From positions 1 through 46,503 of the forward strand of contig JAADHQ010000040.1 in assembly GCA_013151795.1 (NCBI GenBank): a DNA stretch of 46,503 nt. Direction: 5' to 3'. This DNA is from Gammaproteobacteria bacterium. Its GTDB lineage: Bacteria > Pseudomonadota > Gammaproteobacteria > JAADHQ01. Numbering within the stretch: the first letter of the stretch is position 1; every line of letters begins with the position of its first letter. The translations under genes and the position numbers were made by a program. Below, one piece after another: positions 7,581 to 42,917 of the stretch. The notes beneath the pieces were generated by a model. It had not been told where the DNA came from, did not search any database, and was given only the letters and a program-made list of their open reading frames with translations.

Positions 7581-7596
7581 TTCAACACTTCAACAC
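7581..7596 (+). repeat. 8-bp perfect tandem duplication TTCAACAC x2 (frameshift 1 in the cyclase gene)
   Basis: Read directly: 7581-7588 is identical to 7589-7596. Confidence 0.95.
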
Positions 7597-7895
7597 TTAT
7601 TATTTGTAGCATTTACAATTATTGCCAGTTTGCCGGTATTTATATTGGGTTACTGGGTTCAACGTGTTGCTTTGGAAGATGAAGTAGAAAAGGTCGAGGA
7701 AAAGCATCTGCAGGTGGCAAAAAATGTCACCCGCGATCTTGGTCGTTATGTTATGGATGTTGAGGCAGGTATTGAATTTATTACATCAAATTTAATACTG
7801 AAGAATAAACTTGATGGCGTTGCAAAGCTTCTGTCAAAGCTTGATATTCGCTACATCTGTATCACGGACAATAATGGTAATATTCAAATTGAATT

Positions 7896-7911
7896 ACCGG
7901 TTAACCGGTTA
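7896..7911 (+). repeat. 8-bp perfect tandem duplication ACCGGTTA x2 (frameshift 2 in the cyclase gene); creates the palindrome ACCGGTTAACCGGT
   Basis: Read directly: 7896-7903 is identical to 7904-7911. Confidence 0.95.
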
Positions 7912-24214: not shown

Positions 24215-25030
24215 ATGAAAATGCTGTTGGTAAATGGTGAAGAAAAATTATATATAGATGCTAACGATAGAGGGCTGGCTTATGGTGATGGTTTGTTTGA
24301 AACCATCGAGATCAATTTATCGCGACCCGTTTATTGGGAACAACATATTAATCGTTTGAATCATGGCTGTGATATTCTGGGCATTGCCTGTCCGGATGAG
24401 CCATTATTATTACAGGAATGCCTGCAGTTGGCACTGGGTATTAATAAAGGTATCGTAAAAATAATAATAACCAGGGGTTCTGCCGGGCGTGGGTATCGAC
24501 CTGCTCATGATTCAAAAATCAGTAGGATATTATCGTTGCATGAATGGCCTGATATTCCAGAAAATTACTATCTGAAAGGAATTCGGTTATATGCCTGTGA
24601 AACACCGGTATCTATTAATACCAAGCTTGCCGGTATAAAAACACTTTGTCGTCTTGATCAGGTATTGGCACAATCAGAATGGAATGAAAATGATTACGCC
24701 GAAGGTTTGATGCTAGACGCAAATAAGTTGGTGATAGAAGGAACAAAAACAAATATTTTTATTGTCAGGGGAGGGCAATTAAAAACCCCTTTGTTAAATC
24801 ATGCTGGTATAAAAGGTATTATGCGCGATATTGTTATTGCAGCGGCAGACTATCTGGACATGCCTGTTATTGAAACTGAAATAACATGTACGGATCTGGA
24901 AGAAGCAGATGAAATATTTGTTTGTAATAGTATTATAAAGATATGGCCCGTTAATGCGTACAGGGATCAGCAATACGTTATTGGTGATATTACCCGTAAC
25001 ATCATGTTCAGGATTGACCAAATACAATAA
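24215..25030 (+). CDS. pabC: Aminodeoxychorismate lyase (class IV aminotransferase fold)
   Basis: It has DRGLAYGDGLFET, is 271 aa, and lies between pabB and mltG. Confidence 0.75.
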   Translation: MKMLLVNGEEKLYIDANDRGLAYGDGLFETIEINLSRPVYWEQHINRLNHGCDILGIACPDEPLLLQECLQLALGINKGIVKIIITRGSAGRGYRPAHDSKISRILSLHEWPDIPENYYLKGIRLYACETPVSINTKLAGIKTLCRLDQVLAQSEWNENDYAEGLMLDANKLVIEGTKTNIFIVRGGQLKTPLLNHAGIKGIMRDIVIAAADYLDMPVIETEITCTDLEEADEIFVCNSIIKIWPVNAYRDQQYVIGDITRNIMFRIDQIQ

Positions 25031-26107
25031 TGAATAACTTATTTAAAGGCATTGTGAAAAACAAATGGTATCTGTTTATGATTATCATCGGTATTTTGAT
25101 AATCATTAAAGGTGTATACACTTATTCGCAATATAAAGACTTTCTGCAGACACCGCTAATAATTAATGGCGCTTCTATTGAATACAAGATAAAGCCCGGT
25201 GTCAGTATGCGGAAAATAGCCAAGGACCTTACCCGTGAAGGTTTACTGGAACACCCCACCTATCTTATTGTTCGCGCACGTATGCGTAAACTGGCGCAGT
25301 CTATTAAAGTGGGTGAATACGTTATCAGGCAGGGCACTTTTCCCGATGAGTTACTGGATCAGTTTGTTAAGGGTAAGGTAAAACAGTATGCCTTGACTAT
25401 TATTGAAGGCTGGAACTTCAGAGAAGTAATGAAGGCGGTTAATAAACATCCTGATTTACGACACACCCTTGCAGGCAAGACTGATGCTGAAATTATGAAA
25501 GCAATAGGTTATGAAGGCATGCATCCCGAGGGGCGTTTTTACCCTGATACATATCGATTCCCTGCGATGACAACCGATGTCGAGTTTTTAAAACGCGCAT
25601 ACAGGCATATGGAAAAAATACTTGATCAGGCATGGGAAAACAAAGCTGAAAAGTTGCCACTTACTACGCCTTATCAGGCGCTCATTCTTGCATCAATTAT
25701 TGAAAAAGAAACCGGCTCAGAAAAGTGAATACAGGGAAATAGCAGGGGTCTTCACCCGCAGGTTAATTAAAAAGATACGGCTGCAGACAGACCCCACCGT
25801 TATATATGGGCTGGGGGATAAATTTAATGGTAACCTGCGGCGCAAACATTTGCGACGTGATACACCATATAATACTTATACTCGTCGCGGTTTGCCCCCT
25901 ACGCCAATTGCTATGCCGGGTGTTGGTGCTATTAAAGCTGCTTTGAATCCAGCCGATGGCAAAACACTTTATTTTGTTGCCAAAGGAAACGGAAGGCATT
26001 ATTTTTCTAAAACATTAAAAGAACATAATGAAGCTGTGATACGCTATCAACTCAATGGTGACAGAACGCGGGTGTTTTCTTCACGCCCCGTTGCGGATAA
26101 AAAATAG
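25030..26107 (+). pseudogene. mltG: Endolytic murein transglycosylase MltG (YceG) carrying a +1 frameshift in an A4 run; either a pseudogene or a homopolymer sequencing error
   Basis: Two overlapping ORFs (25030-25728 and 25622-26107) together cover MltG. Removing one A at 25721-25724 gives EKETGSESEYREIAGVFTRRL...LQTDPTVIYG. This is colinear, with equal length, with my recollection of E. coli MltG ([21 protein letters not shown]). Confidence 0.8.
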
Positions 26108-26755: not shown

Positions 26756-26781
26756 AATATTATTGTAATAAATTGAAATAT

Positions 26782-27756
26782 ATGGAAAAATCATATTCAT
26801 GGCAAGACAATCAATGGCGACAGATAATCAGTCGTGCGAAACTGGGTAGCCTGCCTCATTCTTTACTACTTACAGGTTTACCCGGTTTGGGGAAGTTTGA
26901 TTTTGCGGTAGAATTAGCAAATAGCCTCTTTTGTGAGCAACCGGATGAAGAAGGTCACAGTTGCGGCCAATGCAGGATATGCCTGCTTCTGAAAGCAGGT
27001 ACCCATCCTGACTTTCATATCGTATCGCCGGAAGAAAAAAGCAAGGTTATCAAGATCGATCAGATCAGGGATTTTTGCAATGTAATGGCTCATAAATCGC
27101 AACTCGGAGGTTATCGGGTTGCGATTCTCTCACCAGCTGAAAGCATGAACACCAGTGCTGCAAATGCATTGCTTAAAACACTGGAAGAACCGGGTGAGCG
27201 TACGCTAATTATGCTTGTAAGTTCTCAGCCAGGGTATTTACCTGCAACGATAAGAAGTCGGTGCCAGAAAGTTGATTTTGGTTTACCAGATTACAACACG
27301 TCAAAAAATTGGCTTGAAAAACAGGGTGTTACTGGTGATATAAAACTGCTGCTTAATTTATCGCTCAAAACGCCTTTAACTGCATTGGCAACATTTAATG
27401 ATGGTCACTTGCAAGAAAGGGCTGCATTTATTAACGAATTCCTTGGATTAAAGCAAGGTCTTCAGAATCCACTGCAATTGGCCGATAAATGGAATAAGCT
27501 ACAACCAGAACGATGTCTGGCGTGGATGATGAGCTGGATTATGGATCTGATACGTTTGAAATCAGATGATAATACCAGCCATATGATCAATAACGATATG
27601 AAACAGCACTTGCAACCCATTGCCAGACAGTTAGACTTACTTAACTTGTTCTCGTTTCAGGATAAACTGCAAGTTGCGAATAGACAGTTAACAACACAGG
27701 TGAACGGTCAGCTACTTTTGGAAGATTTGTTCATCACATGGATAAAGATAAGGTAA
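26782..27756 (+). CDS. holB: DNA polymerase III delta-prime subunit
   Basis: It has LPHSLLLTGLPGLGK and the Zn module CGQCRIC...HPDF. ATG 26782 is preferred over the tracked TTG at 26773. Confidence 0.8.
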   Translation: MEKSYSWQDNQWRQIISRAKLGSLPHSLLLTGLPGLGKFDFAVELANSLFCEQPDEEGHSCGQCRICLLLKAGTHPDFHIVSPEEKSKVIKIDQIRDFCNVMAHKSQLGGYRVAILSPAESMNTSAANALLKTLEEPGERTLIMLVSSQPGYLPATIRSRCQKVDFGLPDYNTSKNWLEKQGVTGDIKLLLNLSLKTPLTALATFNDGHLQERAAFINEFLGLKQGLQNPLQLADKWNKLQPERCLAWMMSWIMDLIRLKSDDNTSHMINNDMKQHLQPIARQLDLLNLFSFQDKLQVANRQLTTQVNGQLLLEDLFITWIKIR

Positions 27757-27760
27757 AAAC

Positions 27761-28120
27761 ATGATAAAACCTGGTGCTCTGGGTGGAAGACAAGGCATTT
27801 TATCCCTGACAATCAAGGATAAAAGTGCGCTATATGCTGCTTATATGCCATTTGTAAAAAATGGAGGTCTCTTTATTCCAACCAAAAAAGAATACAAGCT
27901 TGGTGATGAAGTTTTTATGTTATTAACCTTGATGGATGAGACAGAAAAGTTACCCGTAGCCGGAATTATTGTATGGGTTACACCAGCAGGAGCACAAAGT
28001 AACAGGGCGCCGGGCATTGGTGTGCAGTTCAGTGATCAGGATGGTGGTGCGGCTAAAAATAAAATTGAAACCTATCTTGCTGGTGCATTAGAGGCAGAAC
28101 GTCCTACACATACAATGTAG
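27761..28120 (+). CDS. pilZ: Type IV pilus assembly protein PilZ
   Basis: The protein is 119 aa. The segment GILSLTIKDKSALYAAYMPFVKNGGLFIPT...IETYLAGAL...RPTHTM closely matches my recollection of Pseudomonas PilZ. The gene lies downstream of holB. Confidence 0.85.
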   Translation: MIKPGALGGRQGILSLTIKDKSALYAAYMPFVKNGGLFIPTKKEYKLGDEVFMLLTLMDETEKLPVAGIIVWVTPAGAQSNRAPGIGVQFSDQDGGAAKNKIETYLAGALEAERPTHTM

Positions 28121-28282: not shown

Positions 28283-28303
28283 GAGCCCGGATAATCCGGG
28301 CTC
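28283..28303. terminator. Hairpin between the convergent pilZ and Met-repeat genes (possible bidirectional terminator)
   Basis: GAGCCCGGA-taa-TCCGGGCTC forms a perfect 9-bp stem. There is no clear U-tract. Confidence 0.4.
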
Positions 28304-28323: not shown

Positions 28324-29433
28324 TCAGGATTGGGCTTCTTTTTTGATATTTGCATTATTCTGGCAAGGCGTGTTGCCTGAAGTCTGATTCATGCGATTCA
28401 TGCGATTCATGCGATTCATCATGGCAGCATGCTGATTGGGGCCTTGTTTGAATGCTTGACCCATCATGCCAGCTCGTGGGTTGTTGGTTTGTCCCATCAT
28501 AGCAGCGTGCTGATTGGGGCCTTGTTTGAAGGCTTGACCCATCATGCCAGCTCGTGGGTTGTTGGTTTGTCCCATCATAGCAGCATGCTGGCTGGGGCCT
28601 TGTTTGAAGGCTTGTCCCATCATGCCAGCTCGTGGGGTATTGGTTTGTCCCATCATAGCAGCGTGCTGATCAGGGCCTTGTTTGAAGGTTTGACCCATCA
28701 TTCCGGTTCGTGGGTTGTTGGTTTGTCCCATCATAGCAGCGTGCTGATTAGGGCCCTGTTTGAAGGCTTGACCCATCATGCCAGCTCGTGGGTTGTTGGT
28801 TTGTCCCATCATAGCAGCGTGCTGATTGGGGCCTTGTTTGAAGGCTTGTCCCATCATGCCGGTTCGTGGGGTATTGGTTTGTCCCATCATAGCAGCGTGC
28901 TGATCAGGGTCCTGTTTGAAGGCTTGACCCATCATGCCGGTTCGTGGGTTGTTGGTTTGTCCCATCATAGCAGCGTGCTGATCAGGGCCTTGTTTGAAGG
29001 TTTGACCCATCATTCCGGTTCGTGGGGTGTTGGTTTGTCCCATCATAGCAGCGTGCTGATTGGGGCCTTGTTTGAAGGCTTGTCCCATCATGCCGGTTCG
29101 TGGGTTGTTGGTTTGTCCCATCATAGCAGCGTGCTGATCAGGGCCCTGTTTGAAGGCTTGTCCCATCATGCCGGTTCGTGGGGTGTTGGTTTGTCCCATC
29201 ATGGCTGCATGTTGATCGGGAGCTTGCTTTAAGGCGCCAGCTTGTGGGATGTTAGTTTGCCCCATCATGGCAGTTTGCGAGGTACTGGTTTGTGGCGCAG
29301 TTTTGCCCATCATACCTGCCCCCTGAGTGTTACCCATATGCTCATTATTTTGTGCAAAAGCCATGCTTCCTACTGCCAAACTTAAGCCTGCAAGTGCGCT
29401 AACGGTTACTGTTAATACTGTTTTGCTTTTCAT
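28324..29433 (-). CDS. Secreted Met/His-rich tandem-repeat protein (putative periplasmic Cu(I)/Ag(I)-binding sponge)
   Basis: The start was moved to ATG 29433, which has AAGGAG 7 nt upstream. The signal peptide is MKSKTVLTVTVSALAGLSLAVGSMAFAQ. About ten units of MMGQTN(N/T)PR(T/A)GMMGQ(A/T)FKQGP(D/N/S)QHAA follow. The C-terminal tail is MMNRMNRMNRMNQ. Confidence 0.7.
   Translation of the reverse strand: MKSKTVLTVTVSALAGLSLAVGSMAFAQNNEHMGNTQGAGMMGKTAPQTSTSQTAMMGQTNIPQAGALKQAPDQHAAMMGQTNTPRTGMMGQAFKQGPDQHAAMMGQTNNPRTGMMGQAFKQGPNQHAAMMGQTNTPRTGMMGQTFKQGPDQHAAMMGQTNNPRTGMMGQAFKQDPDQHAAMMGQTNTPRTGMMGQAFKQGPNQHAAMMGQTNNPRAGMMGQAFKQGPNQHAAMMGQTNNPRTGMMGQTFKQGPDQHAAMMGQTNTPRAGMMGQAFKQGPSQHAAMMGQTNNPRAGMMGQAFKQGPNQHAAMMGQTNNPRAGMMGQAFKQGPNQHAAMMNRMNRMNRMNQTSGNTPCQNNANIKKEAQS
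28417..29275 (-). repeat. In-frame tandem array with a 78-bp period: about ten full copies plus one degenerate copy
   Basis: GTCCCATCAT recurs at 28491, 28569 and then every 78 bp up to 29193. Variation is confined to a few positions. A separate 9-bp repeat, GATTCATGC (three full copies plus a degenerate fourth), lies at 28386-28421. Confidence 0.9.
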
Positions 29434-29493
29434 GGTAAATCTCCTTTCATTTGGATAAAATTTCATTTCACAGTTATTATTAAAGCAGTCGTA

Positions 29494-29570
29494 TGTAACT
29501 CGCTTATGACGATAACGGGCATTTTTGTAACAAAACCTGACCATGCGTAAACTTGTTACAATATGTTACA
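29494..29570. promoter_or_regulatory. Candidate response-regulator boxes in the divergent promoter between the Met-repeat gene and the two-component system
   Basis: TGTAAC occurs at 29494-29499 and 29526-29531. GTTACA occurs at 29555-29560 and 29565-29570, and this pair is spaced exactly 10 bp apart (TTGTTACAATATGTTACAAAT). Confidence 0.35.
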
Positions 29571-29613: not shown

Positions 29614-30348
29614 ATGAACAACGAAACACACAAAGATCATATTCTTGTAGTCGATGATGATTCAGAGATTCGTCATTTACTAAAAGAATATCTGGAAAAA
29701 CACGGTATGCAGGCCAGTACAGCCATTGATGGTAAAACAATGTGGCGTGCACTGGATAAATCAAGAATTGACCTGATCGTACTGGATCTGATGTTGCCAG
29801 GCGAGAGCGGCTTGAGCTTGTGCCGTAAGTTATGCGCAGATAAAAAGGTTCCTGTCATCATGTTAACCGCGCTTGGTGAAGAAACAGACAGGATCGTTGG
29901 CCTTGAAATGGGTGCAGATGACTATCTGGTCAAACCCTTTAATCCGCGTGAGTTGCTGGCGCGAATTAATAGCGTCATACGACGTACGCGTGCTTATCCG
30001 GATAGCGTCGATCAGGTAACGACCAATGAACGATTATATTTTGCAAACTGGACGCTTGATACCGTTGCACGCCACCTGATAACGGATGATGAGGTGGTTG
30101 TTCCTTTGAGTGGAGGAGAATACCGCTTATTGCGGATATTTCTTGACCGCCCAAACAGGGTGTTAAGTCGTGATCAATTACTGGAACTGGTTAGCGGTAA
30201 GCAGGCTTTGCCGTTTGATCGCAGTATAGACGTTCAGGTCGGGCGCCTACGTAAGCGTCTGGGAGATGACAGTCGCGAACCCCGGTTGATAAAAACGGTA
30301 CGCAGTGCCGGTTATGTCTTTACTGAAACGGTAAGAGAAAAAGCATGA
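29614..30348 (+). CDS. OmpR-family winged-helix response regulator
   Basis: Receiver motifs VVDDD, DLMLPG and VKPF are present. The C-terminus FDRSIDVQVGRLRKRL...TVRSAGYVF is OmpR-like. Confidence 0.85.
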   Translation: MNNETHKDHILVVDDDSEIRHLLKEYLEKHGMQASTAIDGKTMWRALDKSRIDLIVLDLMLPGESGLSLCRKLCADKKVPVIMLTALGEETDRIVGLEMGADDYLVKPFNPRELLARINSVIRRTRAYPDSVDQVTTNERLYFANWTLDTVARHLITDDEVVVPLSGGEYRLLRIFLDRPNRVLSRDQLLELVSGKQALPFDRSIDVQVGRLRKRLGDDSREPRLIKTVRSAGYVFTETVREKA

Positions 30349-31745
30349 TTCGTTTTTTACCACAATCGCTCTTTGGTCGCTTGGCACTCATCCTGTTTTC
30401 CGGGTTGTTGCTGGGGCAGCTGGCCAGTACTGCAATACAGTTTCATGATCGTGGCCAGCGTTTGTTTCAGGCCAGTGGCTTGTCCAGCTCGGAGCGTATT
30501 GCCGAAATTGTACGTTTGCTGAATGGTGCTAACAGCACCGAACGAAAGCGCCTGGTATCTATTTTAAATACACCGCCGTTACGTGTTTCACTGGCAACAG
30601 CTACATGGACAGAACCTGATAATATTGCTCAAAGTTGGCCGGCTGTTGAGTTTCGGAAGCGTTTACAGCGACAGTTAGGTGATAATTATCCTTTACGTGT
30701 TGCTATAAGTGATCAACCTACATCGGGCAATATGCAAAAAATGCATGATGCGGGCGAACATGATATGCGGCATATGCAAGGCATGGGTATGGCGCTTCCT
30801 GATGCTTTGGTGTTTTTTGCACAAGTAAGATTGAGTGATGGCACCTGGGTTTCTTTTGAAAACAGTATCGCACCAGAAGTGCTTGAGGGTTCATCTGCAT
30901 TATTATTGATACTGGCTGTTCTGGTTGCGATTGTTTTATTTATATCATTGCTGGCAGTGCGTTGGGTGACCAGACCGCTGACAATGTTAACCGAGGCGGC
31001 GGACAAGCTGGGTGGTAACATTAATCAGCCACCATTGGTAGAAACCGGCCCGACGGAGTTTCGTCATGCTGCTAAAGCATTTAATTCAATGCAGGTTCGG
31101 CTACAACGGTTTATTGAAGATCGTACAAGATTATTAACCGCTATCTCACATGATTTAAAAACGCCCATAACGCGTATGCGATTACGCGCCGAGATGCTGG
31201 ATGACTCGGAGCAACGTGATAGTTTTGTAAAAAATCTGGATGAAATGCAGCTTATCGCGACCGAGACACTGGATTTTTTACGCGCAGATGATGCTCGTGA
31301 GCCATTACAAACCGTTGATATTTGCGCGTTACTTGAAGCAATAAAAGATGATGTTGCAGAGTTAGGTCATAACATTGAGATAGAACCGTGTATATTGAAA
31401 CCTTGTTTTTCGCGCCCACTTGCTTTAAAACGTTGTATTGGTAATCTGGTTGAGAATGCTATTAAATATGCAGACAACGTCCGTATCTCGACCCGGCAAA
31501 CTGAAGCAACACTGGTTATTACTGTAAGTGATTCGGGGCCCGGAATACCGGAAGAAAAACTGGAAACTGTATTTGACCCGTTTTACAGGTTAGAAACATC
31601 ACGTAACAGAGAGACAGGCGGCAGTGGCCTGGGTTTAAGTATCGCACGCAATATTGCCTTGTCTCATGGCGGTGATCTAAAGCTCAAGAATAATCCGGAT
31701 GGCGGGTTATATGCAATCCTGACGTTATTACGTAATATTGAATAA
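30345..31745 (+). CDS. EnvZ-type sensor histidine kinase with a Met/His-rich periplasmic patch
   Basis: Two TM segments flank a periplasmic domain of about 150 aa. A HAMP domain, the H-box ISHDLKTPIT, and N/G boxes (NLVENAIKY, DSGPGI, GGSGLGLSI) are present. The gene overlaps the response regulator gene by 4 nt. Confidence 0.85.
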   Translation: MIRFLPQSLFGRLALILFSGLLLGQLASTAIQFHDRGQRLFQASGLSSSERIAEIVRLLNGANSTERKRLVSILNTPPLRVSLATATWTEPDNIAQSWPAVEFRKRLQRQLGDNYPLRVAISDQPTSGNMQKMHDAGEHDMRHMQGMGMALPDALVFFAQVRLSDGTWVSFENSIAPEVLEGSSALLLILAVLVAIVLFISLLAVRWVTRPLTMLTEAADKLGGNINQPPLVETGPTEFRHAAKAFNSMQVRLQRFIEDRTRLLTAISHDLKTPITRMRLRAEMLDDSEQRDSFVKNLDEMQLIATETLDFLRADDAREPLQTVDICALLEAIKDDVAELGHNIEIEPCILKPCFSRPLALKRCIGNLVENAIKYADNVRISTRQTEATLVITVSDSGPGIPEEKLETVFDPFYRLETSRNRETGGSGLGLSIARNIALSHGGDLKLKNNPDGGLYAILTLLRNIE

Positions 31746-31770
31746 TAAATGCATCGGAAATAAATATAAA

Positions 31771-32514
31771 ATGGCAACATGGTTACAAGGAAGCGTAGTA
31801 GAAAACAATCAATGGTGTACTGATCTGTACTCCCTTAAAATCAGTGTCGATCCAATAAAATTTAAAGCAGGGCAATTTGCCAGTATAGGCATGGAAGAGA
31901 ATAACGAAATACTGGCTCGTCCATACTCGCTTGTTAATACACCGCATGATCCAATACTTGAAATTCATTTTAATACGGTAATAGAAGGTCACTTAAGCCC
32001 ACGACTGGCACGTCTGGGAAAAGGTGATGTCGTTCATGTATCTGATCGTACAGGCGGATTACTGACGATAGATGAAGTCCCTGATGTGCCCAATTTATGG
32101 CTACTGGCTACCGGCACAGGCATTGGGCCTTTTTTATCTATACTGAAAACAGATGAGCCCTGGAAGCGATTTAAAAATATTGTTTTATGTTATTCAGTTA
32201 TGACGCATGAAAAACTGGCGTACCAAACGGACATTGAAAAGTTTCAATCAGATTACCCGGAGCAATTCAGATTTATACCTTTTATTACTCGCGAGAAAGT
32301 TGCGGGTACTATTTCCTCGCGTATTACAACCAGTATAGAAAATGGCGAACTTGAAAAACAGGCTGCATTACAATTATCATCGGATTCAAATCACTTTATG
32401 TTATGTGGAAACTCAACGATGATTAGTGAAGTCACTACCTTGTTAGAAAGCAGAGGGTTGCGACGCCATAAACGCAGGGAACCGGGCCATATCGCGATAG
32501 AGAAATATTATTAA
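31771..32514 (+). CDS. fpr: Ferredoxin/flavodoxin-NADP+ reductase
   Basis: The start was moved to MATWLQGSVVENNQW, which is colinear with my recollection of the E. coli Fpr N-terminus. The sequences RPYSLVN, LLATGTGIGPF and MLCGN and the C-terminal EKYY are present. Confidence 0.85.
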   Translation: MATWLQGSVVENNQWCTDLYSLKISVDPIKFKAGQFASIGMEENNEILARPYSLVNTPHDPILEIHFNTVIEGHLSPRLARLGKGDVVHVSDRTGGLLTIDEVPDVPNLWLLATGTGIGPFLSILKTDEPWKRFKNIVLCYSVMTHEKLAYQTDIEKFQSDYPEQFRFIPFITREKVAGTISSRITTSIENGELEKQAALQLSSDSNHFMLCGNSTMISEVTTLLESRGLRRHKRREPGHIAIEKYY

Positions 32515-32614
32515 TACTCAAAAGGGTGATTGATAAATAGAAAACTTTGCGTTGAATCTTTAATCCATATTTATCATTAAACCATCGAATCCTGTTTTAA
32601 TTATCAGTCGGCAT

Positions 32615-32827
32615 TTAACGATTTTCGTAACGGTTCAGATCAAGCAGTCCTGATAAAATCGGTTTGTTTGATTGGTATATATCCTGAAACCAGTCTGCCA
32701 TTTTCCAGAATAACGGGTCGGTTCGTCTGACTCCGTAGCGGTTAACAAAATTATCATAATCCTGGTTAGACCGTATTGTCGTACACAGGGTTATGAATTC
32801 TTCAATATCTGACAGGGCGACGGAGAA
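32615..32827 (-). pseudogene. Orphan 3-prime fragment (last 70 codons plus stop) of a second, diverged cti gene
   Basis: The fragment encodes FSVALSDIEEFITLCTTIRSNQDYDNFVNRYGVRRTDPLFWKMADWFQDIYQSNKPILSGLLDLNRYENR(stop). It aligns without gaps to the C-terminus of the full cti (39550-39762). By hand count the identity is about 80 percent at both nucleotide and amino-acid level. An in-frame TAG lies immediately upstream. Confidence 0.8.
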
Positions 32828-32889
32828 CTAGCCTGGGGTATGCAACTGATCGGTTAGATCCTGCCGGGCATGGGTGTAAATAATAAGTG

Positions 32890-35800
32890 TTAGCTGCTCC
32901 ATGTTTTTTCCTCACGCGCATGCACTAATTGGTACAGTGCAGGTAACACCACCAGAGTTAACAAAGTTGATGAAATAATGCCGCCAATAACAACGGTAGC
33001 AAGGGGCCGTTGAACTTCGGAACCAATCCCCGTATTTAACGCCATGGGAATAAAGCCAAGTGCCGCTACCAGCGCTGTCATTAGAACGGGACGTAGTCGT
33101 GTCAGTGCGCCGTCAACAATCGCCTCATTTAAATGTTGGCCATGCGCACGTAAATCACGGATAAAGGAGACCATCACCAGGCCATTTAGAACGGCGATTC
33201 CTGACAGGGCGATAAAACCCACAGCTGCGGATATTGAAAATGGAATATCGCGCAGTAGTAATGCAAAGATGCCGCCCGTGAGTGCTAATGGCACGCCGGA
33301 GAAGATAATCGTTGCATCTTTAACTGAGCCTAATGCCATAATCAGCAAACCAATCACCAGTGTTAATGTTAATGGCACTACAATCGATAGACGCTGTGTG
33401 GCGGATTGTAATTTTTCATATGTCCCGCCGTATTCAACCCAGTATCCTGCAGGTATCTCAACACGTTCTTCAACCGTTTTTTGTACATCCTGCACAAATG
33501 AGCCCAGATCACGGCCACGAACATTGGCGGTTACTACAATGCGCCGCTTGCTATTTTCTCGATAAATCTGGTTATAACCCGTAAGTAAATTAAGCTCAGC
33601 AACTTCACCTAAGGGTACATAGTGTCCATTGCCAAGCATTACCGGCATACTGGATAGTGCATCCGTATCGGTACGTAAATCTTCAGCTAGACGCACAACA
33701 ATTTCAGATCGGCGATCACCTTCATAGAATTGACTTGCTACGCTGCCACCTAAGGCGGTTGATAGTAAATCCTGTAGCTCAGCAATACTCAAAGCATATC
33801 GAGCCATGGCATCACGTTTAGGTTGTATGGTCATTACCGGTAAACCGCTGGCTTGTTCAATTGCCACATCAGACGCACCGGGCACTTTTTTAAGGGCCTT
33901 TTCAATTTCTGAACCCAAGGCAATCAGTTGATCAAAATCATCACCAAACACTTTGATGGCCAATTCTGCACGAACACCAGAAATTAATTCATTAAAGCGC
34001 ATTTGAATCGGTTGTAAAAACTCATAACGATTGCCGGGAATAGGTGTAACCAGAGCTTCGAGATCGGCTACCACTTGCAATTTTGACTTATTCGGATCGG
34101 GCCATTGATCACGGGGTTTAAGAATAATAAAATTATCCGCAACACTGGGCGGCACCGCATCGGTGGCCACTTCAGCGGTACCGATTTTTGCAAAGACCAG
34201 CTCCACTTCCGGTAATTTCTTTATTTCTTTTTCCAGACCCTGCTGTAAACGTATCGATTGCTTCAGTGAGGTACCCGGTATACGCAGTGCGTGCATGGCA
34301 ATATCACCTTCATCCAGATTGGGCATAAATTCTGAACCCAGTTTTGGAATTAAAGCAGCAGAAACCAGAATTAGCAGCATCGCCATAGACACCACAGCCC
34401 AGCGAAATTTCAGTGATAACATTAAGACGGGTTGATAGGCAGAGCGTGCAGTTGTAATTATCTTGCTTTCTTTTTCCTGTATTGGTTTTTTAAATAAAAG
34501 TGCAATGGCAGCGGGTACAAAAGTAATTGATAAAATCATTGCACTTACTAATGCAATAATCACGGTTAATGCCATGGGGTGAAACATTTTACCTTCCACA
34601 CCATCCAGTGCAAAAATCGGAATGTAGACAGCAGTAATAATAAATACACCAAATAAGGCCGGGCGTATGACTTCGCGCGTGGCGTCAAATACCAGGGCTA
34701 AGCGCTCTTTAAGCGGCAGGGTTTGCGTGCCAGCCTGACTCAACCGGCGCAAACAGTTTTCAACAATAATCACCGCGCCATCAATGATCAAACCAAAATC
34801 CAGGGCGCCGAGACTCATTAGATTGGCACTGACTTTACTCTGTACCATGCCGGTAATGGTCATCAACATGGCAATAGGAATAACGGCAGCGGTTAACAAC
34901 GCGGCGCGAATATTTCCCAGTAATAAAAATAAAATTACAATAACCAGCAAGGCTCCTTCAAGTAGATTCTTTTGTACTGTAACTAAAGTTTTATCTACTA
35001 GCGTAGTACGGTTATAAACTGCGTTTACGCTAATGCCCACCGGTAAACTGGTTTTAATTTCTTCAAGTTTTACCGCAACATTATTCGCTACCGTGCGACT
35101 GTTTTCACCAGTCAACATAAATACGGTGCTCATGACTACTTCACGACCATTTTGAGTTGCCGCACCGGTTCTCAACTCTTTTCCCAGGCTCACGGTTGCC
35201 ACATCTTTTATACGAATGGGCAAGCCTTGTTGTTGCTGAATAATAATATTTTCAAGGTCGGTTAAATTGCGGGCCTGGCCGGGTACGCGCATCAACCACT
35301 GTGCACCATTATGCTCGATAAAACCGACACCGCGATTACCATTATTTTGCTCCACAGCATTAACTACATCTTGATAGTTAATGCCGTGAGCCAGAAGTTT
35401 GGCAGGCTCGGGTGCAATCAGTATCTGTTTTTTATAACCGCCAATCGGGTTCACTTCGACCACACCTGGCACGCGCATTAACTGTGGGCGAATAGTCCAG
35501 TCATGTACCGAGCGTAAATCGGTGGGCGTGACTAAACTACCATTGGCATTTTTAGCGCCTGGTTCTGCATCCACAGTGAACATAAATATTTCACCTAAAC
35601 CGGTTGCAATGGGCCCCAGGGTTGGCTCCAGGCCTTTGGGCATATTCCCTTTTGCAGTACTTAATCGTTCACCGACTAACTGGCGCGCAAAATAAATATC
35701 GGTGCCTTCGGTAAACACTATGGTGACCTGTGACAGCCCATAACGTGAAACCGAACGGGTATAGCTTAATTTTGGCAACCCTGCCATGGCGGTTTCTATC

Positions 35801-36003
35801 GGAAAGCTGACACGCAGCTCTGTTTCAAGTGGTGTGTAACCCGGTGCTTCGGTATTAATCACCACCTGTATATTGGTAATATCCGGTACCGCGTCAATTG
35901 GTAACTGAGTGAATTTCCATGCCCCCAGTCCCATAATCATCAGTACCAGCGCAATCACAAGTCCTCGTCGTTCGAGAGACAGTTGTATAATTTTTTCAAG
36001 CAT
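32890..36003 (-). CDS. czcA: Heavy-metal efflux RND pump, CzcA family (divalent-cation type)
   Basis: The protein is 1037 aa with 12-TM RND architecture. The TM4 motif ALDFGLIIDGAVIIVEN is of the DFG-DGA-VEN type found in Co/Zn/Cd/Ni HME pumps, not the CusA-type AIG..VDAAIV..EN. Confidence 0.85.
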   Translation of the reverse strand: MLEKIIQLSLERRGLVIALVLMIMGLGAWKFTQLPIDAVPDITNIQVVINTEAPGYTPLETELRVSFPIETAMAGLPKLSYTRSVSRYGLSQVTIVFTEGTDIYFARQLVGERLSTAKGNMPKGLEPTLGPIATGLGEIFMFTVDAEPGAKNANGSLVTPTDLRSVHDWTIRPQLMRVPGVVEVNPIGGYKKQILIAPEPAKLLAHGINYQDVVNAVEQNNGNRGVGFIEHNGAQWLMRVPGQARNLTDLENIIIQQQQGLPIRIKDVATVSLGKELRTGAATQNGREVVMSTVFMLTGENSRTVANNVAVKLEEIKTSLPVGISVNAVYNRTTLVDKTLVTVQKNLLEGALLVIVILFLLLGNIRAALLTAAVIPIAMLMTITGMVQSKVSANLMSLGALDFGLIIDGAVIIVENCLRRLSQAGTQTLPLKERLALVFDATREVIRPALFGVFIITAVYIPIFALDGVEGKMFHPMALTVIIALVSAMILSITFVPAAIALLFKKPIQEKESKIITTARSAYQPVLMLSLKFRWAVVSMAMLLILVSAALIPKLGSEFMPNLDEGDIAMHALRIPGTSLKQSIRLQQGLEKEIKKLPEVELVFAKIGTAEVATDAVPPSVADNFIILKPRDQWPDPNKSKLQVVADLEALVTPIPGNRYEFLQPIQMRFNELISGVRAELAIKVFGDDFDQLIALGSEIEKALKKVPGASDVAIEQASGLPVMTIQPKRDAMARYALSIAELQDLLSTALGGSVASQFYEGDRRSEIVVRLAEDLRTDTDALSSMPVMLGNGHYVPLGEVAELNLLTGYNQIYRENSKRRIVVTANVRGRDLGSFVQDVQKTVEERVEIPAGYWVEYGGTYEKLQSATQRLSIVVPLTLTLVIGLLIMALGSVKDATIIFSGVPLALTGGIFALLLRDIPFSISAAVGFIALSGIAVLNGLVMVSFIRDLRAHGQHLNEAIVDGALTRLRPVLMTALVAALGFIPMALNTGIGSEVQRPLATVVIGGIISSTLLTLVVLPALYQLVHAREEKTWSS

Positions 36004-36054
36004 AATAAATTTCCATAGCGGGATTATTGGCCATTGAATAAGCAGGCATATGCA

Positions 36055-37326
36055 TTAGTGGTCATGTGAGGCGCCGGATTTTTCAATATCGGCTTTAATC
36101 ACATAGCTGTTTTCGCTAACGTAAGTCGTGCCCGTTTCTAAACCGCCTAGCACTTCAATCCACTCGCTATCCTGTCGGCCCAGTTCCAGCATACGCACTT
36201 CATACTCTTCCCCTATTTGTGCATAGACCACAGTAAAATCTCTAAAGGTTTGTAGGCCTGAGCGTTTCACCGCCAGAGAGACGGGAATTTCTGCGACTTT
36301 AATTTTGGCTTGCACATAACTGCCAGGTAAAAACTGGCCATTTTTATTATCAACCACCAGCCGGGCAATAACTGACTGATTGGTTTCAGCCAATATGTTT
36401 ATCAGAGCAATTTTGCCTTTAAAAGATCGGGTTTTATTTGCCAATGTGAAACTGACAGGAGCTCCCACTTTGATGCGTGGTTGATTTGCCGGGAATATGG
36501 ATAAATCGACCCAGACATTGGATGTATCAGCAATTATAAACAGGCTTTTCCCATCCGTCTGTTCACCTGCATTCGCATTGCGCTGGATGATGGTGCCACT
36601 AATAGGGGCTTTGATGTTGTAAAGCTTAAGACTTTCGTTACTTTCCACGTTAGCCAGTACCTGGCCTTTGTGAACCGTATCACCCATGGAAACTGAAACG
36701 GATTTAATGACTCCAGCAAAACGCGCACTAACATGACTCATCTGCTCTGTATTGACGGTGATTTTGCCGAACACATTTATGGTTTGTTGCAACACAATTG
36801 GCCCTGCGATATTTGTGTTGATTTCCAGTTCTTTAGCGACGGACATTTCAATTTTTGTGCGACCTTCAAAATTATCGTATTGCCAGGTATATTGTTTACC
36901 GTTATAACTTGCATCAATATTCACGATAAATGAATGGGGTTCATAAATAACACTATCACCCCGTAGTGCATCGCCATGAGGTTTAAAGTTTATTTTATCT
37001 ACTTTCCCACCAAGGCGAGTCAGCATAATTTCAAGTTCAACCTCTGTTGGTTTTAATGGTTGATCTTTAAAGCTTGCCCAGGCACGGAATTCAGGTGGTA
37101 CACCGGTTTCAAAAATAGCTAATTCGAGAGTGAAGTCATCATGCTTTAGTAAACGTCCTCTGTGAGCGCCTTTTTCGATTTCAACTGGCGTGCCGTGCGT
37201 ATTACTGTTTGTACTACTTTGCTCAGTTGCTGAATTTCCACATGCGTTTATTAGCGTGGCTGAACAAATGATGAGTAAACTTTTCACTATCCATTGAGGT
37301 TTAAATAATTTCATAGTAAGTCTCAT
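36055..37326 (-). CDS. czcB: RND periplasmic adaptor (CzcB family), lipoprotein
   Basis: It has an INAC lipobox and barrel-sandwich/beta-barrel adaptor regions, and lies between the OMF and RND genes. Its start overlaps the czcC stop by 4 nt. Confidence 0.8.
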   Translation of the reverse strand: MRLTMKLFKPQWIVKSLLIICSATLINACGNSATEQSSTNSNTHGTPVEIEKGAHRGRLLKHDDFTLELAIFETGVPPEFRAWASFKDQPLKPTEVELEIMLTRLGGKVDKINFKPHGDALRGDSVIYEPHSFIVNIDASYNGKQYTWQYDNFEGRTKIEMSVAKELEINTNIAGPIVLQQTINVFGKITVNTEQMSHVSARFAGVIKSVSVSMGDTVHKGQVLANVESNESLKLYNIKAPISGTIIQRNANAGEQTDGKSLFIIADTSNVWVDLSIFPANQPRIKVGAPVSFTLANKTRSFKGKIALINILAETNQSVIARLVVDNKNGQFLPGSYVQAKIKVAEIPVSLAVKRSGLQTFRDFTVVYAQIGEEYEVRMLELGRQDSEWIEVLGGLETGTTYVSENSYVIKADIEKSGASHDH

Positions 37327-38618
37327 AATTTTTTACCTGCCGGTTGCGTCATGGATACGCCGGTTAAACGTTCGATTTCAATCACTTTTAAATGCGCAGC
37401 AATACTGTCTTCAATTAATGATGTACGTGCATTGAGTAACTCCGCCTGCACGCTGCGCCATTCAAGATAACTATAGCGACCTAAATCATAGGCACGCCGG
37501 GTTTGGGTGAGTGCGGTTTCAAGTCGGGGAATAATTTCCTTGCGATAGGTTTCAACCCGGTGCAAGCTGTGCTGTAATTTTTCAGTCAATACAAACAGCG
37601 TAGTTTCCAGGCGTACGTTGAGTTCATCCTGTAGCGCTTGTGTTTGTGACAGGTTTTCCTGTGCCGTGCGAATGCGCCCCGTGTTCCGACTGCGTTCTCC
37701 AAAGGGAAAGCTAATTCCGGCGACCAATGCCTGATCATTTGTTTGCTCATAATGGCGAACCCCCAGATTCAGTTTCCACTCAGGTTTGCTTTTTGATTGT
37801 GCCAGTTTTAACTGAGCTTGTTTCAGGCGTTTATCTGATAACAGGCGAAGAAAATCCGGGCTCTGTTGAAGTCGTTGTTTCAATGTTTCAAAAGTCAAAG
37901 ACGGCGGAGTGTTAAAAATATCCCCTTCGACTTTGTTAAACCGAGGTTTGACTTCTCCCCATTGTGCCGCCAACAAACGAATCGCCGAACTGAGCTGATA
38001 AGTAATATTTTCACGATCCAGACGTTTTCTTGCCAGCTCAGCCCTGGCTCTTGCCAGTTCAGCATCGGGTGTTTTGCCTGAGTTCACTCGCTTGTCAACC
38101 GCGATAACGGTTCTACTCGCAAGTGCTACTGTTTTATCCGCATTGATCAGATTAGCCTGTTTTGCCAGACAGATAAGATATAATCGTGCGGTTTCAGCCG
38201 CTACATCCAGGCGTTTGATTGTTGTCTCAGTCGATAGAGATAACGCTTCTGCTTGTGCTTCATCGATAAAACGCTGGCGAATTTCACCCTCTAATACCCA
38301 GCCAATATTCATTGTGATTTGAGCACTATCTGTACTTTTGTAATTGCCCGATCCTGAAACATCTTCAATAACAAGGTTAAACTCCGGACTGGCTGACATC
38401 CTGGCCTGCAACACACGTCCCTGTTGTGCTTTAAGTTCATAACTAAACGACTTTAATGCCGGATTATGTGCAAACGTTTTGCTAATGGCCTGACGTAAAT
38501 TAATGGTCTGGGTACCGATATTAAGGTACTGATCATGGACACTCGTTTCAGCTGGTAAAACACTACTGAACAGCAGCAGCGAGCAGCTGAAAAAATAAAT
38601 TTTCGATTTGGATAACAT
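37323..38618 (-). CDS. czcC: Outer-membrane factor (TolC-like, CzcC family)
   Basis: It has a signal peptide and two tandem OEP-type coiled-coil repeats, and is the first gene of the three-gene pump cluster. Confidence 0.8.
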   Translation of the reverse strand: MLSKSKIYFFSCSLLLFSSVLPAETSVHDQYLNIGTQTINLRQAISKTFAHNPALKSFSYELKAQQGRVLQARMSASPEFNLVIEDVSGSGNYKSTDSAQITMNIGWVLEGEIRQRFIDEAQAEALSLSTETTIKRLDVAAETARLYLICLAKQANLINADKTVALASRTVIAVDKRVNSGKTPDAELARARAELARKRLDRENITYQLSSAIRLLAAQWGEVKPRFNKVEGDIFNTPPSLTFETLKQRLQQSPDFLRLLSDKRLKQAQLKLAQSKSKPEWKLNLGVRHYEQTNDQALVAGISFPFGERSRNTGRIRTAQENLSQTQALQDELNVRLETTLFVLTEKLQHSLHRVETYRKEIIPRLETALTQTRRAYDLGRYSYLEWRSVQAELLNARTSLIEDSIAAHLKVIEIERLTGVSMTQPAGKKL

Positions 38619-38785
38619 GCTTCTGTTATCTCCTGTATGGGATAAATATCAGTAACACGCACTTATACATAGACACAGTGTGACTGAGTTTTAATTAAAA
38701 AATAATTTAATAAAGATGCGTAATGAATAAAACATAGTTCGCTCTAAAACATGAGGATTTATGCTGATGATTTATAGATTACGGG

Positions 38786-38810
38786 TTAAAAATCCAGAAC
38801 GAAAGTTCTG
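38786..38810 (-). terminator. Weak hairpin/attenuator between the His-rich ORF and czcC
   Basis: On the minus strand the structure reads CAGAAC-tttc-GTTCTG and is followed by GATTTTTAA. The stem is only 6 bp. Confidence 0.3.
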
Positions 38811-38812
38811 AT

Positions 38813-39238
38813 TTACTTTATTGGAGGCGCGCGCAAGGGTGGTTGGAGTAAATAATAACGAGAGGTAAAGGGGATAATAGATAGTGCTAGTCTGGCTACG
38901 CTCCTCAGGCGAGGGCTGTACAGAAAGAGACAGAAAAAGAGCCAAATAAGCACTAAGAGGTTAAGTAAATTAGTTTTATTCTGTAATTTTTCAGCACTAA
39001 TATCCACAGCGCTAGTGGAATGATTATTCTGGTGATTCGTCAGGTTAAAATCATGCGGGGTTGATTCAGGGTGTATACCAGCGACATGTGTATTCGCATG
39101 TCCATGCCCAGATGAGATAGCGTGATTATCAAGTTCAAGGTGCATGTGCATTTTACTGGCCTGTGATAGCAGCAGCGTAAAGCCAAAGCACAGAATCAGC
39201 AGAATTTTGAGCATCGAATTGTTATGGAGTTTCACCAT
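38813..39238 (-). CDS. Small His-rich membrane-anchored protein upstream of czcCBA (same position as CzcI; function unknown)
   Basis: Starting from ATG 39238, the N-terminal hydrophobic segment is MLKILLILCFGFTLLLSQA. About ten His then occur in about 45 residues (HMHLELDNHAISSGHGHANTHVAGIHPESTPHDFNLTNHQNNH). A second TM segment follows (LLNLLVLIWLFFCLFLY). The start codon is uncertain. Confidence 0.45.
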   Translation of the reverse strand: MVKLHNNSMLKILLILCFGFTLLLSQASKMHMHLELDNHAISSGHGHANTHVAGIHPESTPHDFNLTNHQNNHSTSAVDISAEKLQNKTNLLNLLVLIWLFFCLFLYSPRLRSVARLALSIIPFTSRYYLLQPPLRAPPIK

Positions 39239-39549
39239 GAGTCGGAGTCTACCCGTTGTTTTCACATCATACAAGTAAAGTTGCATTGGTGTAACTCTTG
39301 GCATATTGAGTCTAATTCCAGTGGTATATCAATCTTATTGAACAGGGATAGGGTGGCATTATTATCAAAAGCCTGCTTTCATCAATACATTCCCTGATAG
39401 TTGTACACCTTTCCTGGCTTCTTATTTGAGTCAGGTTGATCTTTAAGCACGCCGGGAACAGGGCCACATAGCGATAGTGAAATATTATTAATGCAGGGGT
39501 TCTGGTTAAATAAAATTGTTGTTTGCTGTAATTGAAACGTCAAATGATA

Positions 39550-42116: not shown

Positions 42117-42917
42117 ATGAATACAATACCTTACCTTATCGATTCTCATTGCCATCTGGATCGTCTTGAACTATCAAAGCACGATGGTGATTTATCTCTC
42201 GCGCTTGACATGGCAAAACAAAATGGCGTAGGACACATGTTATGTGTATCAATTGGCCTGAAAGATTATCCGGCCATGCTTGAAAAAGTAATGCCATTTC
42301 CCCAGGTGTCTGTTTCTGTTGGCGTGCACCCAAATGAACAGGATGGTATCGAGCCGACAGTCGATATGCTTGTAGACATGGCAAAAAATAAAAAGGTTGT
42401 TGCCATTGGTGAAACAGGCCTTGACTATTTTCGTTCCGAAGGTGATCTGGATTGGCAACGTGATCGTTTCAGGGTTCATATAGAAGCTTCCAAACAGACC
42501 GGAAAACCATTGATTATTCACACTCGTGAAGCCAGAGAGGATACGTTGGCAATCATGAAATCCGAGAAAGCTAACGAGGCGGGTGGTGTGATGCATTGTT
42601 TTGCTGAAGACTGGGAAACGGCCAAACAAGCACTGGATCTGGGTTTTTATATATCATTTTCCGGTATCGTGACATTCAAGAATGCCAAAGACTTGCAGGA
42701 AGTTGCCAAAAAAGTACCGTTGGATAAAATGCTGGTCGAAACAGATTCTCCTTATCTTGCACCCGTCCCTAATCGTGGAAAACCTAATGAGCCTGCATAT
42801 GTTTTGTTTGTAGCTGAAAAAATTGCTGAATTACGTGGAATGTCTCTGGAAGAAGTTGCCAGTATCACTACAAATAATTATAAGCAATTGTTCAAGTGGG
42901 ATTCGACCAGCCTGTAA
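42117..42917 (+). CDS. ycfH: TatD-family metal-dependent hydrolase (YcfH type)
   Basis: It has IDSHCHLD, GETGLDY and H/D metal ligands, and is 266 aa. In related genomes this gene normally follows holB/pilZ. Confidence 0.8.
   Translation: MNTIPYLIDSHCHLDRLELSKHDGDLSLALDMAKQNGVGHMLCVSIGLKDYPAMLEKVMPFPQVSVSVGVHPNEQDGIEPTVDMLVDMAKNKKVVAIGETGLDYFRSEGDLDWQRDRFRVHIEASKQTGKPLIIHTREAREDTLAIMKSEKANEAGGVMHCFAEDWETAKQALDLGFYISFSGIVTFKNAKDLQEVAKKVPLDKMLVETDSPYLAPVPNRGKPNEPAYVLFVAEKIAELRGMSLEEVASITTNNYKQLFKWDSTSL

Follow-up and report, generated by a model that had tools for sequence, protein, structure and literature searches.

The repeat-protein gene and its layout

In a 46,503-nt stretch of gammaproteobacterial DNA (contig JAADHQ010000040.1; this whole stretch is hereafter called the window), we studied a minus-strand gene for a secreted protein built largely of near-identical repeats containing Met and His, together with the two-component system encoded divergently from it. 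Coordinates refer to the window unless another locus is named by an L number, and those of the features discussed are collected in Table 1. A sequence-only reading of this DNA had described a ribosome-binding site (AAGGAG, 7 nt from an ATG at 29433), a Sec signal peptide, about ten 26-residue units preceded by one degenerate unit, a (NRM)x3 tail encoded by a 9-bp repeat and a divergent two-component system whose kinase carries a Met/His patch. All of these are present. A longer open reading frame (ORF) starting at 29544, which had been listed mechanically, was rejected, because the homologues presented below, together with the conserved ribosome-binding site, place the start at 29433. The signal peptide consists of MKSK, a hydrophobic core and AFA followed by Q, and inspection of its sequence revealed neither a lipobox Cys nor a twin-arginine motif. 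Both ends of the protein are homologous to those of short proteins encoded at the equivalent genomic position in loci L002, L003 and L004.

Regarding the 3' region, its predicted RNA fold has an energy of -22.1 kcal/mol (z = -3.5 in comparison with shuffled sequences), and the hairpin found there has no clear U-tract. On the opposite strand we noted an ORF of 267 aa (28429-29232, +) with HHSS/WVVGLSHH repeats. We judged it to be a stop-free by-product of the array, since it has no ribosome-binding site, start signals or homologues, while the minus-strand product has family support.

Table 1. Positions of the repeat-protein gene, its promoter elements and the adjacent two-component system in the window (aa, amino acids)
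Feature	Position	Strand	Basis
Terminator-like hairpin, GAGCCCGG-AUUAU-CCGGGCUC	28283..28303	-	Lies between the small gene and the convergent pilZ-domain gene
Secreted Met/His-rich repeat protein, coding sequence, 369 aa	28324..29433	-	ORF, ribosome-binding site, translation; stop codon 28324-28326
C-terminal tail, 20 residues, QTSGNTPCQNNANIKKEAQS, with the only Cys	28327..28386	-	Aligns with the family C-terminal motif ..Q.TGN(Y/T)PCH..K; Cys nearly invariant
MM(NRM)x3N segment, 9-bp repeat	28387..28422	-	Tandem Repeats Finder (period 9, 3.8 copies, 100% matches); translation
Ten in-register 78-bp / 26-aa units, aa 78-337	28423..29202	-	Tandem Repeats Finder; unit table
Degenerate first unit, 23 aa, aa 55-77, MMGQTNIPQAGALKQAPDQHAA	29203..29271	-	Translation
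Family-conserved N-terminal mature region, aa 28-54, QNNEHMGNTQGAGMMGKT...	29272..29352	-	HMG and GMMG(Q/K)T invariant or almost invariant among family members
Sec signal peptide, aa 1-27, MKSKTVLTVTVSALAGLSLAVGSMAFA, followed by Q	29353..29433	-	Read from the sequence; most conserved part of the family alignment
Shine-Dalgarno AAGGAG	29441..29446	-	7-nt spacer to the ATG at 29433; AGGAG invariant in the 7-locus intergenic alignment
Core promoter: GTTACA box at the -35 position and conserved TGCTTTAATAATAA (-10-like)	29474..29499	-	Invariant columns
GTTACAAAA box	29523..29531	-	Invariant in the intergenic alignment
Direct repeat TGTAAC-N4-TGTAAC, putative regulator box, 10-bp spacing	29555..29570	-	Invariant in 7 loci
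OmpR-family response regulator, 244 aa, divergent from the small gene	29614..30348	+	Pfam Response_reg and Trans_reg_C
EnvZ/CpxA-like sensor histidine kinase	30345..31745	+	Two transmembrane segments, ~140-aa periplasmic domain, HAMP, HisKA, HATPase
Kinase periplasmic Met/His patch, aa 130-149, MQKMHDAGEHDMRHMQGMGM	30732..30791	+	Alignment of 7 orthologues

A tandem array of distinct units

Using Tandem Repeats Finder, we obtained a period of 78 bp with 10.5 copies, 91% matches and a score of 1288 between positions 28417 and 29235. The translation of the ten units gives the consensus MMGQTN(N/T)PR(T/A)GMMGQ(A/T)FKQ(G/D)P(D/N/S)QHAA, with 4 Met and 1 His in each full unit. M, H, G, Q, P, F, K and R were reported as constant across the ten, the consensus listing G/D at one position. 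The tenth full unit is followed by MMNRMNRMNRMN, and the program places the 9-bp repeat, 3.8 copies long, at 28386-28419. The whole protein contains 52 Met (14%), 12 His, 1 Cys and 11 QHAAMM motifs, the unit content and the motif count both agreeing with those given in the sequence-only reading, while its mature part has 50 Met and 12 His (14.7% and 3.5%, respectively). There are 11 HxxM motifs and 23 MM dyads, and charged residues (K+R+D+E) make up ~10% of the 369 positions, compared with ~13% in the family described below.

At the DNA level the ten units show a mean identity of 92.2%, with 16 of the 78 sites variable, and 23 of 120 site pairs failed the four-gamete test. The variants are thus mosaic among units, which fits gene conversion or unequal exchange and bears out the earlier description of near-identical units with recombining variants. 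The ancestral 52-residue double unit proposed in the same description fared worse. Units at lags 1, 2, 3 and 4 are separated by 6.2, 5.9, 4.6 and 5.3 differences, and since the lag-2 distance shows no drop relative to the other lags, the double unit is not supported, nor is any other higher-order periodicity. Being in frame, the 78-bp units would let the copy number change by unequal recombination. We scanned metagenome DNA twice, for the unit junction and the degenerate MMGQ(A/T)FKQGP pattern, without a match, and the 26-aa unit was found in no other sequence of any collection searched. Exact look-ups in public assemblies gave no record of the window protein or of the kinase.

Hence, one could argue that the gene is real but that its ten-unit length is an assembly artefact, the array having been expanded or collapsed, or else a population variant. 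The failure to find the unit in any other sequence would agree with this; 1 nt separates unit 3 from unit 7, and 2-3 nt several other pairs, which can mislead short-read assemblers, and an apparent frameshift at A-runs in an mltG homologue of the window makes sequence errors possible. All ten units are nevertheless pairwise distinct, the 1.1 kb keep one intact reading frame, the sequences on either side of the array match the N- and C-termini of the family and the contig is continuous over 46.5 kb. A collapse would usually be expected to give identical consensus units, not ten distinct mosaics, and we consider an artefactual or variable length very improbable.

A family of short secreted proteins

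When the whole repeat protein was used as the query, none of 8000 word-sharing candidates was significant, because the repeats dominate the search. The route that worked was a profile made of short syntenic homologues and a repeat-trimmed copy of the window protein. At the three orthologous loci L002, L003 and L004, the position divergent from the regulator is occupied by short ORFs of 98-127 aa that share a signal peptide, a start of the form AFAQ-(N/D)GHMG...GMMGQT and an end of the form ...TGN(Y/T)PC(H/Q)...K. The profile search returned 33 proteins of 92-165 aa, none of which has a Pfam domain or an informative name, and no more than 29 clusters, with lengths of 46-165 aa, came out of an exhaustive hidden Markov model (HMM) search of 1.84 billion cluster representatives.

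The sequence-only reading had recognised no described family in the repeat architecture. This holds for the curated collections, as nothing in Pfam, NCBIfam or the PDB matched, and gives way in one respect: the protein is not isolated, and belongs with a short, unannotated family. More precisely, in the comparison with SilE/PcoE the window protein matched no NCBIfam or Pfam family at E<=0.01 and its 33 relatives none at E<=1, and a PDB sequence search with the family profile gave nothing at E<=10.

The hallmarks of the family are a signal peptide ending in A(F/Y)A, HMG, GMMGQT, at least one HxxM(M/H)G(Q), HHA and a single, near-invariant C-terminal Cys. All of these are present in the window protein, along with the promoter boxes presented below, with two substitutions (QHAA for HHA and PCQ for PCH). 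Members of the family often have a Lys-rich tail as well. No other member reaches half the length of the window protein, whose 26-aa unit is built of the family's own motifs, GMMGQ ... H-x-x-M-M-G-Q, and members P0001, P0006, P0008, P0010 and P0015 have short tandem repeats of their own, of GMMGQ or GxMHGQ motifs. Repeats in several members imply that motif amplification is a habit of the family, of which the window gene is the extreme case. The amplified block appears to run from GMMGQT to the equivalent of HHA (QHAA), a stretch that amounts to nearly the complete mature core in the shortest members, as judged from alignments of low-complexity sequence with z of about 3-5 relative to shuffles. 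According to these comparisons, the core of a small, unannotated family of secreted proteins has been amplified tenfold in tandem in the window gene.

The hosts of this family are uncultured or little-studied Gammaproteobacteria of the marine and sediment sulfur cycle. As the family forms only 29 clusters among 1.84 billion representatives and is nowhere named, its hallmarks and promoter boxes should be useful for annotation.

A divergent OmpR/EnvZ-like system with conserved promoter boxes

In NCBIfam searches the regulator gave its best score with OmpR (254.3 bits) and the kinase scored 213.9 bits with EnvZ, both below cut-off. The CpxA/CpxR models, also under their own cut-offs, ranked above the heavy-metal family TIGR01386/TIGR01387 (CusRS/SilRS/CopRS), which gave 117.5 bits for the kinase (cut-off 292.55) and 143.9 bits for the regulator (cut-off 279.2). 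Kinase orthologues with 73-78% identity are found in L001-L004, from metagenome-assembled genomes labelled Acidiferrobacterales, Gammaproteobacteria HyVt isolate and Granulosicoccaceae.

The small gene is divergent from the regulator and kinase genes in eight of nine contexts (the window, L002/L032, L003, L004, L024/25, L026/27, L028/29 and L030), the kinases having 461-468 aa. The exception is P0007 (L031), which has no two-component system beside it. Outer neighbours are different in each context and include NnrS and NorQ/D-like genes, a multidrug-type resistance-nodulation-division (RND) pump, toxin-antitoxin genes, a pair formed by an extracytoplasmic function (ECF) sigma factor and its anti-sigma partner, and a fatty-acid cis/trans isomerase (CTI) gene with a cyclopropane-fatty-acid-synthase-like gene. 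The ECF sigma and zf-HC2-like anti-sigma genes adjoin the small gene in L003 (3247-3605) and L004 (5475-6694) and are not conserved elsewhere; the sigma ORF of L003 looks truncated.

By aligning seven intergenic regions, we identified the invariant blocks TTTGTAAC-N4-TGTAACA, GTTACAAAA, GTTACA with TGCTT(T/A)AATAAT, and AGGAG. These boxes are invariant though the small proteins are only ~40-50% identical across the aligned loci. TGTAAC-N4-TGTAAC has a single site in the whole window, and GTTACA occurs four times within 77 bp at the promoter, compared with 19 times in the whole 46.5 kb on both strands. Among 11 fetched loci, the composite motif was present exactly once per locus and always at the promoter of the small gene. 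The full set of boxes also lies upstream of the unlinked member P0007 (L031 7588-8041), where the absence of an adjacent system implies control in trans by a regulator encoded elsewhere. In L001 (690-885) the orthologous system is present and the small gene has been lost by a clean deletion. The TGTAAC-N4-TGTAAC and GTTACAAAA boxes are retained there despite this loss and now precede the cyclopropane-fatty-acid-synthase-like gene, which in L002/L032 lies downstream of the small gene.

Regulators of the OmpR/PhoB family bind direct hexamer repeats at 10-bp spacing. A scan for the sigma-70 consensus found no convincing promoter on the strand of the small gene, and a weak consensus would be expected of an activator-dependent promoter. 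Judging from the boxes, we infer that the divergent regulator acts directly on the small gene as its main target, and it probably also regulates itself.

The kinase patch takes the form HxMxHMQ..MGM, and G137, M141, H143, G148 and M149 are invariant in seven orthologues of 60-77% overall identity. The periplasmic domain that carries it, of ~140 residues, has no Pfam relative and no PDB match at E<=10, and a wider search with the sensor region returned only three unnamed fragments. A Sulfuricella homologue (L008, kinase at 7449-8810, +), 48% identical over aa 200-461, carries RMHPGNRMHPGVMP at the equivalent position of its sensor, while the homologue of L005, 47% identical, has neither the patch nor a small partner gene. 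Taken together, the family appears to be the dedicated output of one OmpR/EnvZ-like system and possibly also its periplasmic partner.

Proposed metal buffering and competing interpretations

The window protein is very probably intrinsically disordered, as the earlier reading had supposed for a secreted Met/His-rich repeat protein. AlphaFold2 gave it no confident fold, with a mean predicted local distance difference test (pLDDT) score of 47.8 and a predicted TM-score (pTM) of 0.18; its low-confidence short helices would put the H, M and M of QHAAMM on one face. For a family member modelled with the 33-sequence alignment, the values were 51.1 and 0.13, and the only helix was that of the signal peptide. 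A disordered protein strictly paired with a kinase that has the same sensor-loop motif would be a compact model for the effects of accessory proteins on two-component signalling.

We then counted residue spacings in the 33 short members. HxxM was observed 38 times, compared with 17.3 expected (z 5.3), MH and MM dyads were enriched with z of 11.8 and 9.3, respectively, and GM[MH]G was found 53 times with 0.8 expected. In contrast, MxxH (2 versus 17 expected), HxM and MxM were depleted. The spacing is therefore constrained and not a by-product of composition. Across the family, His (8.5%) matches Met (7.4%) in both abundance and conservation, and a single Cys is almost invariant. MH dyads, of which its relatives have 1-5, are absent from the window protein, and the replacement of MH by MM implies a shift towards thioether-only ligands.

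The composition, the HxxM enrichment and the analogies drawn below make Cu(I)/Ag(I) binding plausible. On this basis, we propose that the kinase patch would bind a soft metal ion, of which Cu(I) and Ag(I) are the likeliest, and that the phosphorylated regulator would bind the conserved GTTACA boxes and switch on the small gene. The exported protein would use its HxxM(M/H)G and GMMG motifs to chelate the metal, thereby buffering the periplasm and lowering the kinase signal in a negative feedback, and the tenfold amplification would multiply the binding capacity per polypeptide. In this scheme we infer the control by the divergent regulator, a metal as the ligand, the buffering and the feedback, and we give the whole model, a disordered periplasmic Cu(I)/Ag(I)-type buffer under a patch-bearing kinase, an even chance of being right. 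Should metal binding prove right, SilE/PcoE would be joined by a second class of disordered periplasmic sponge that evolved independently, and the family would offer a natural dose series for relating valency to buffering capacity, from one core in relatives of ~95 aa to ten in the window protein.

Several observations weigh against a metal buffer. MM dyads are not the classic Cu(I) spacing, and both MxM and MxxM are rarer than expected. By their family scores, the kinase and regulator are OmpR/EnvZ-like and fall outside the CusS/CusR heavy-metal family. The precise deletion in L001 shows the small gene to be dispensable in at least one lineage, and no copper-specific gene (copA, cusF or multicopper oxidase) was seen in the nine contexts. 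The neighbouring RND pump, which we had considered as support for Cu/Ag, was rejected as such. The CusA triad M573/M623/M672 aligns to H/V/E in this pump, whose best PDB match is ZneA, and its adaptor and outer-membrane subunits resemble those of a divalent-metal exporter. In the window, the kinase is separated from CTI by an FNR-like reductase, the CzcA/ZneA-like RND operon and a His-rich membrane ORF (31738-39304), whereas in the closest relative kinase and CTI are direct neighbours (L002 4362-4370; L032 5675-5683), so the pump block of ~7.5 kb is a lineage-specific insertion. The RND pump found beside the module in L028 is of the multidrug type and only 23% identical. With a pump that is not of the CusA type and was inserted in this lineage, the neighbourhood lends no specific support to Cu/Ag.

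One could also argue that the protein is a sacrificial sink of Met against periplasmic oxidants (hypochlorous acid (HOCl), chloramines, chlorite), resembling MrpX, with the Met patch of the kinase acting as a redox switch. Its ten units would then give ~40 extra sacrificial Met. The composition of the window protein points this way, as its mature part has 14.7% Met while His has fallen to 3.5% from 8.5% in the family, with no MH dyads. There is also a precedent in MrpX, a signal-peptide-bearing, Met-rich protein that is induced and oxidised by hypochlorite (PMC4436054). For the kinase, a parallel may be seen in HypV/HprS of E. coli, for which such a switch has been proposed and in which Met of the periplasmic loop is needed for HOCl sensing (bioRxiv 10.1101/2021.09.09.459708). 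Nine of the 33 members gave weak matches to TIGR02953 (pentapeptide MXKDX repeat protein), a model that would correspond to MrpX, but the best score was 14.4 bits against a cut-off of 41, over the signal peptide and the first Met motif, and the window protein gave no match. Moreover, MrpX has 20% Met and 44% charged residues, compared with ~10% charged in the window protein and ~13% in the family, and is encoded in the yedYZ (msrPQ) operon under SigF/NrsF, whereas no msrP/msrQ or SigF/NrsF genes were present within the window or the nine contexts. A Met sink would not need the conserved His at fixed HxxM spacing, HHA or the invariant Cys either, and we regard this explanation as quite unlikely. 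If it were nonetheless the right one, the MrpX concept would extend to two-component control without nearby Msr genes.

The arrangement of the genes suggests yet another function, similar to that of CpxP. Here the disordered protein would bind the sensor domain of the kinase, maybe bridged by a ligand held at the Met/His motifs common to both, and set its activity in the way of CpxP with CpxA or ZraP with ZraS, so that signalling or chaperoning would be its main role and not bulk sequestration. Both the cpxP<->cpxRA layout, with regulator boxes in the shared intergenic region, and the motif chemistry shared by the kinase patch and the small protein are consistent with this. Two further observations favour it and count against the metal buffer. 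In the Sulfuricella locus L008 the slot (~6064-6540, -) holds an LTXXQ protein (PF07813, E 6.5e-17), which starts with GMGGGMMSQG after its signal peptide and stands beside the kinase with RMHPGNRMHPGVMP in its sensor, and lipid modifiers flank the module (CTI and the cyclopropane-fatty-acid-synthase-like gene in L002/L032; CTI in the window). Together they hint at a general envelope-stress system. However, comparing the family profile with the L008 protein by hhalign gave a probability of 4.4% over 20 columns, and the family has no Pfam match. The equivalence of the slot comes from one example, and the L005 system lacks both patch and small gene. A stoichiometric regulator would have no obvious need of a tenfold core, which capacity would fit better. 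This role is also compatible with metal binding, and thus partly a refinement of the buffer model rather than an alternative; as the main function we find it improbable.

A more unusual reading would make the family a new type of periplasmic partner: a disordered protein that shares the Met/His motif of the kinase sensor loop, competes for or bridges its ligand and sets the threshold of the response, having taken, in this clade, the slot that belongs in Sulfuricella to an LTXXQ protein beside a homologous kinase. The tenfold in-frame amplification would have retuned the strength of the buffer, moving the amplified copy from Met/His to nearly pure Met ligands in a manner changeable in 78-bp steps. 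We consider this reading rather unlikely.

Comparison with known systems

By sequence, the window protein lies outside the SilE/PcoE, CopM (DUF305), MrpX-type and LTXXQ families. Its functional likeness would be strongest to SilE/PcoE and CopM, and its circuit layout is closest to that of CpxP, with AgrRS-PrsQ2 as a further analogue.

SilE and PcoE are the periplasmic Ag+/Cu+ 'molecular sponges' of the sil and pco determinants; their ten His are conserved in position, and the disordered apo form folds when it takes up several of these ions. SilE is disordered when free and binds six Ag+, with HxxM/MxxH as mapped ligands (PMC5008109). Like the window protein, which is predicted to be disordered, it is Sec-exported and rich in Met and His, and its HxxM ligand motif (PMC5008109) is the spacing enriched in the window family. 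SilE expression depends on a nearby two-component system, a control that we propose for the window gene too, and a role as first-line buffer has been proposed. The differences lie in the details of composition and regulation. SilE has 10 His and 10 Met in MxxHxxxxxHxxM and HxxMxxxHxxM without tandem DNA repeats, whereas the mature window protein has 50 Met and 12 His, MM dyads, one Cys and ten near-identical 78-bp units. There is no sequence relationship, MxxH is depleted in the window family (2 versus 17 expected), and the regulation is of the SilRS/CusRS type in one case and OmpR/EnvZ-like in the other.

CopM, from the copMRS genes of Synechocystis, has 23 Met and 8 His, binds copper and lowers cellular copper (PMC4335983). 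Like the window protein, this Met/His-rich protein, which is periplasmic or extracellular, is encoded together with a two-component system of its own. CopM has two DUF305 domains with an HH motif, whereas neither the window protein nor any of the 33 relatives matched DUF305; its gene belongs to the copRS operon and is not divergent, and it has no tandem repeats.

MrpX of Azospira suillum is encoded in the yedYZ-mrpX operon under SigF/NrsF control, and its Met residues are oxidised by hypochlorite and recycled by YedY (PMC4436054). It is also a small, signal-peptide-bearing periplasmic Met-rich protein, in its case strongly induced by a dedicated envelope sensor. Besides the difference in charge (20% Met and 44% charged residues in MrpX), the window family has conserved His and Cys, a two-component context and no nearby msrPQ.

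With CpxP, ZraP and Spy the module shares a small periplasmic-protein gene divergent from an OmpR-family regulator and a CpxA/EnvZ-like kinase, of which it would likely be a direct target. The synteny in eight of nine contexts and the invariant boxes correspond to this circuit layout, with the regulation itself as a proposal. Unlike those proteins, which have LTXXQ motifs and a helical hairpin fold, neither the window protein nor its 33 relatives match PF07813, and no confident helices were predicted for the window protein or the one relative modelled, in line with the hhalign value of 4.4%.

Reportedly, the CopA/CopB proteins of Pseudomonas syringae contain Met-rich octapeptide repeats, which Cha and Cooksey are said to have given in 1991 as D-H-S-Q/K-M-Q-G-M. 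The likeness, by this account, is that of tandem short repeats with His and Met in exported copper-resistance proteins, and MQGM also occurs in the kinase patch (HMQGMGM). Those 8-residue repeats are set inside a folded multicopper oxidase or an outer-membrane protein, whereas here a 26-residue unit makes up nearly the whole protein.

Finally, AgrR of Cupriavidus metallidurans directly activates the gene of a small predicted periplasmic protein needed for silver resistance, from a box of hexamer half-sites with a 4-bp spacer in an inverted 6-4-6 repeat (PMC7380067). Both systems have an OmpR-family regulator, a small periplasmic product and hexamers separated by 4 bp. In contrast, PrsQ belongs to a CopQ-like family, TGTAAC-N4-TGTAAC is a direct and not an inverted repeat, and AgrRS groups with CzcRS/CopRS while the window system does not.

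Other observations in the window

The GC (guanine-cytosine) profile showed no compositional island around the small gene, and Rfam and tRNA scans of the window found nothing. The mltG (yceG) homologue at 25030-26107 (+) is split into two overlapping ORFs in different frames, with the junction at ~25700-25727. Its N-terminal half ends in ...IIEKETGSEK and a stop codon, the C-terminal half continues as ...SEYREIAGVFTRRL, and the break falls at short A-runs. The split gene is either a pseudogene or the product of a homopolymer indel error, and an indel would bear on the trust placed in the assembly.

Upstream of the genes for the outer-membrane, adaptor and RND subunits of the pump lies an ORF without a Pfam match (38813-39304, -). 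It has a start resembling a signal peptide or transmembrane segment, a His-rich part (MHMHLELDNHAISSGHGHANTHVAGIHPESTPHDF...NHQNNH) and a hydrophobic C-terminal segment, and may encode a metal-related accessory of the pump. In many Gammaproteobacteria, holB and pilZ-domain genes adjoin tatD. In the window, holB and the pilZ-domain gene (26773-28120) are ~14 kb away from tatD (42117-42917), and this interval holds the small gene, the two-component system, the FNR-like gene, the RND operon and CTI.

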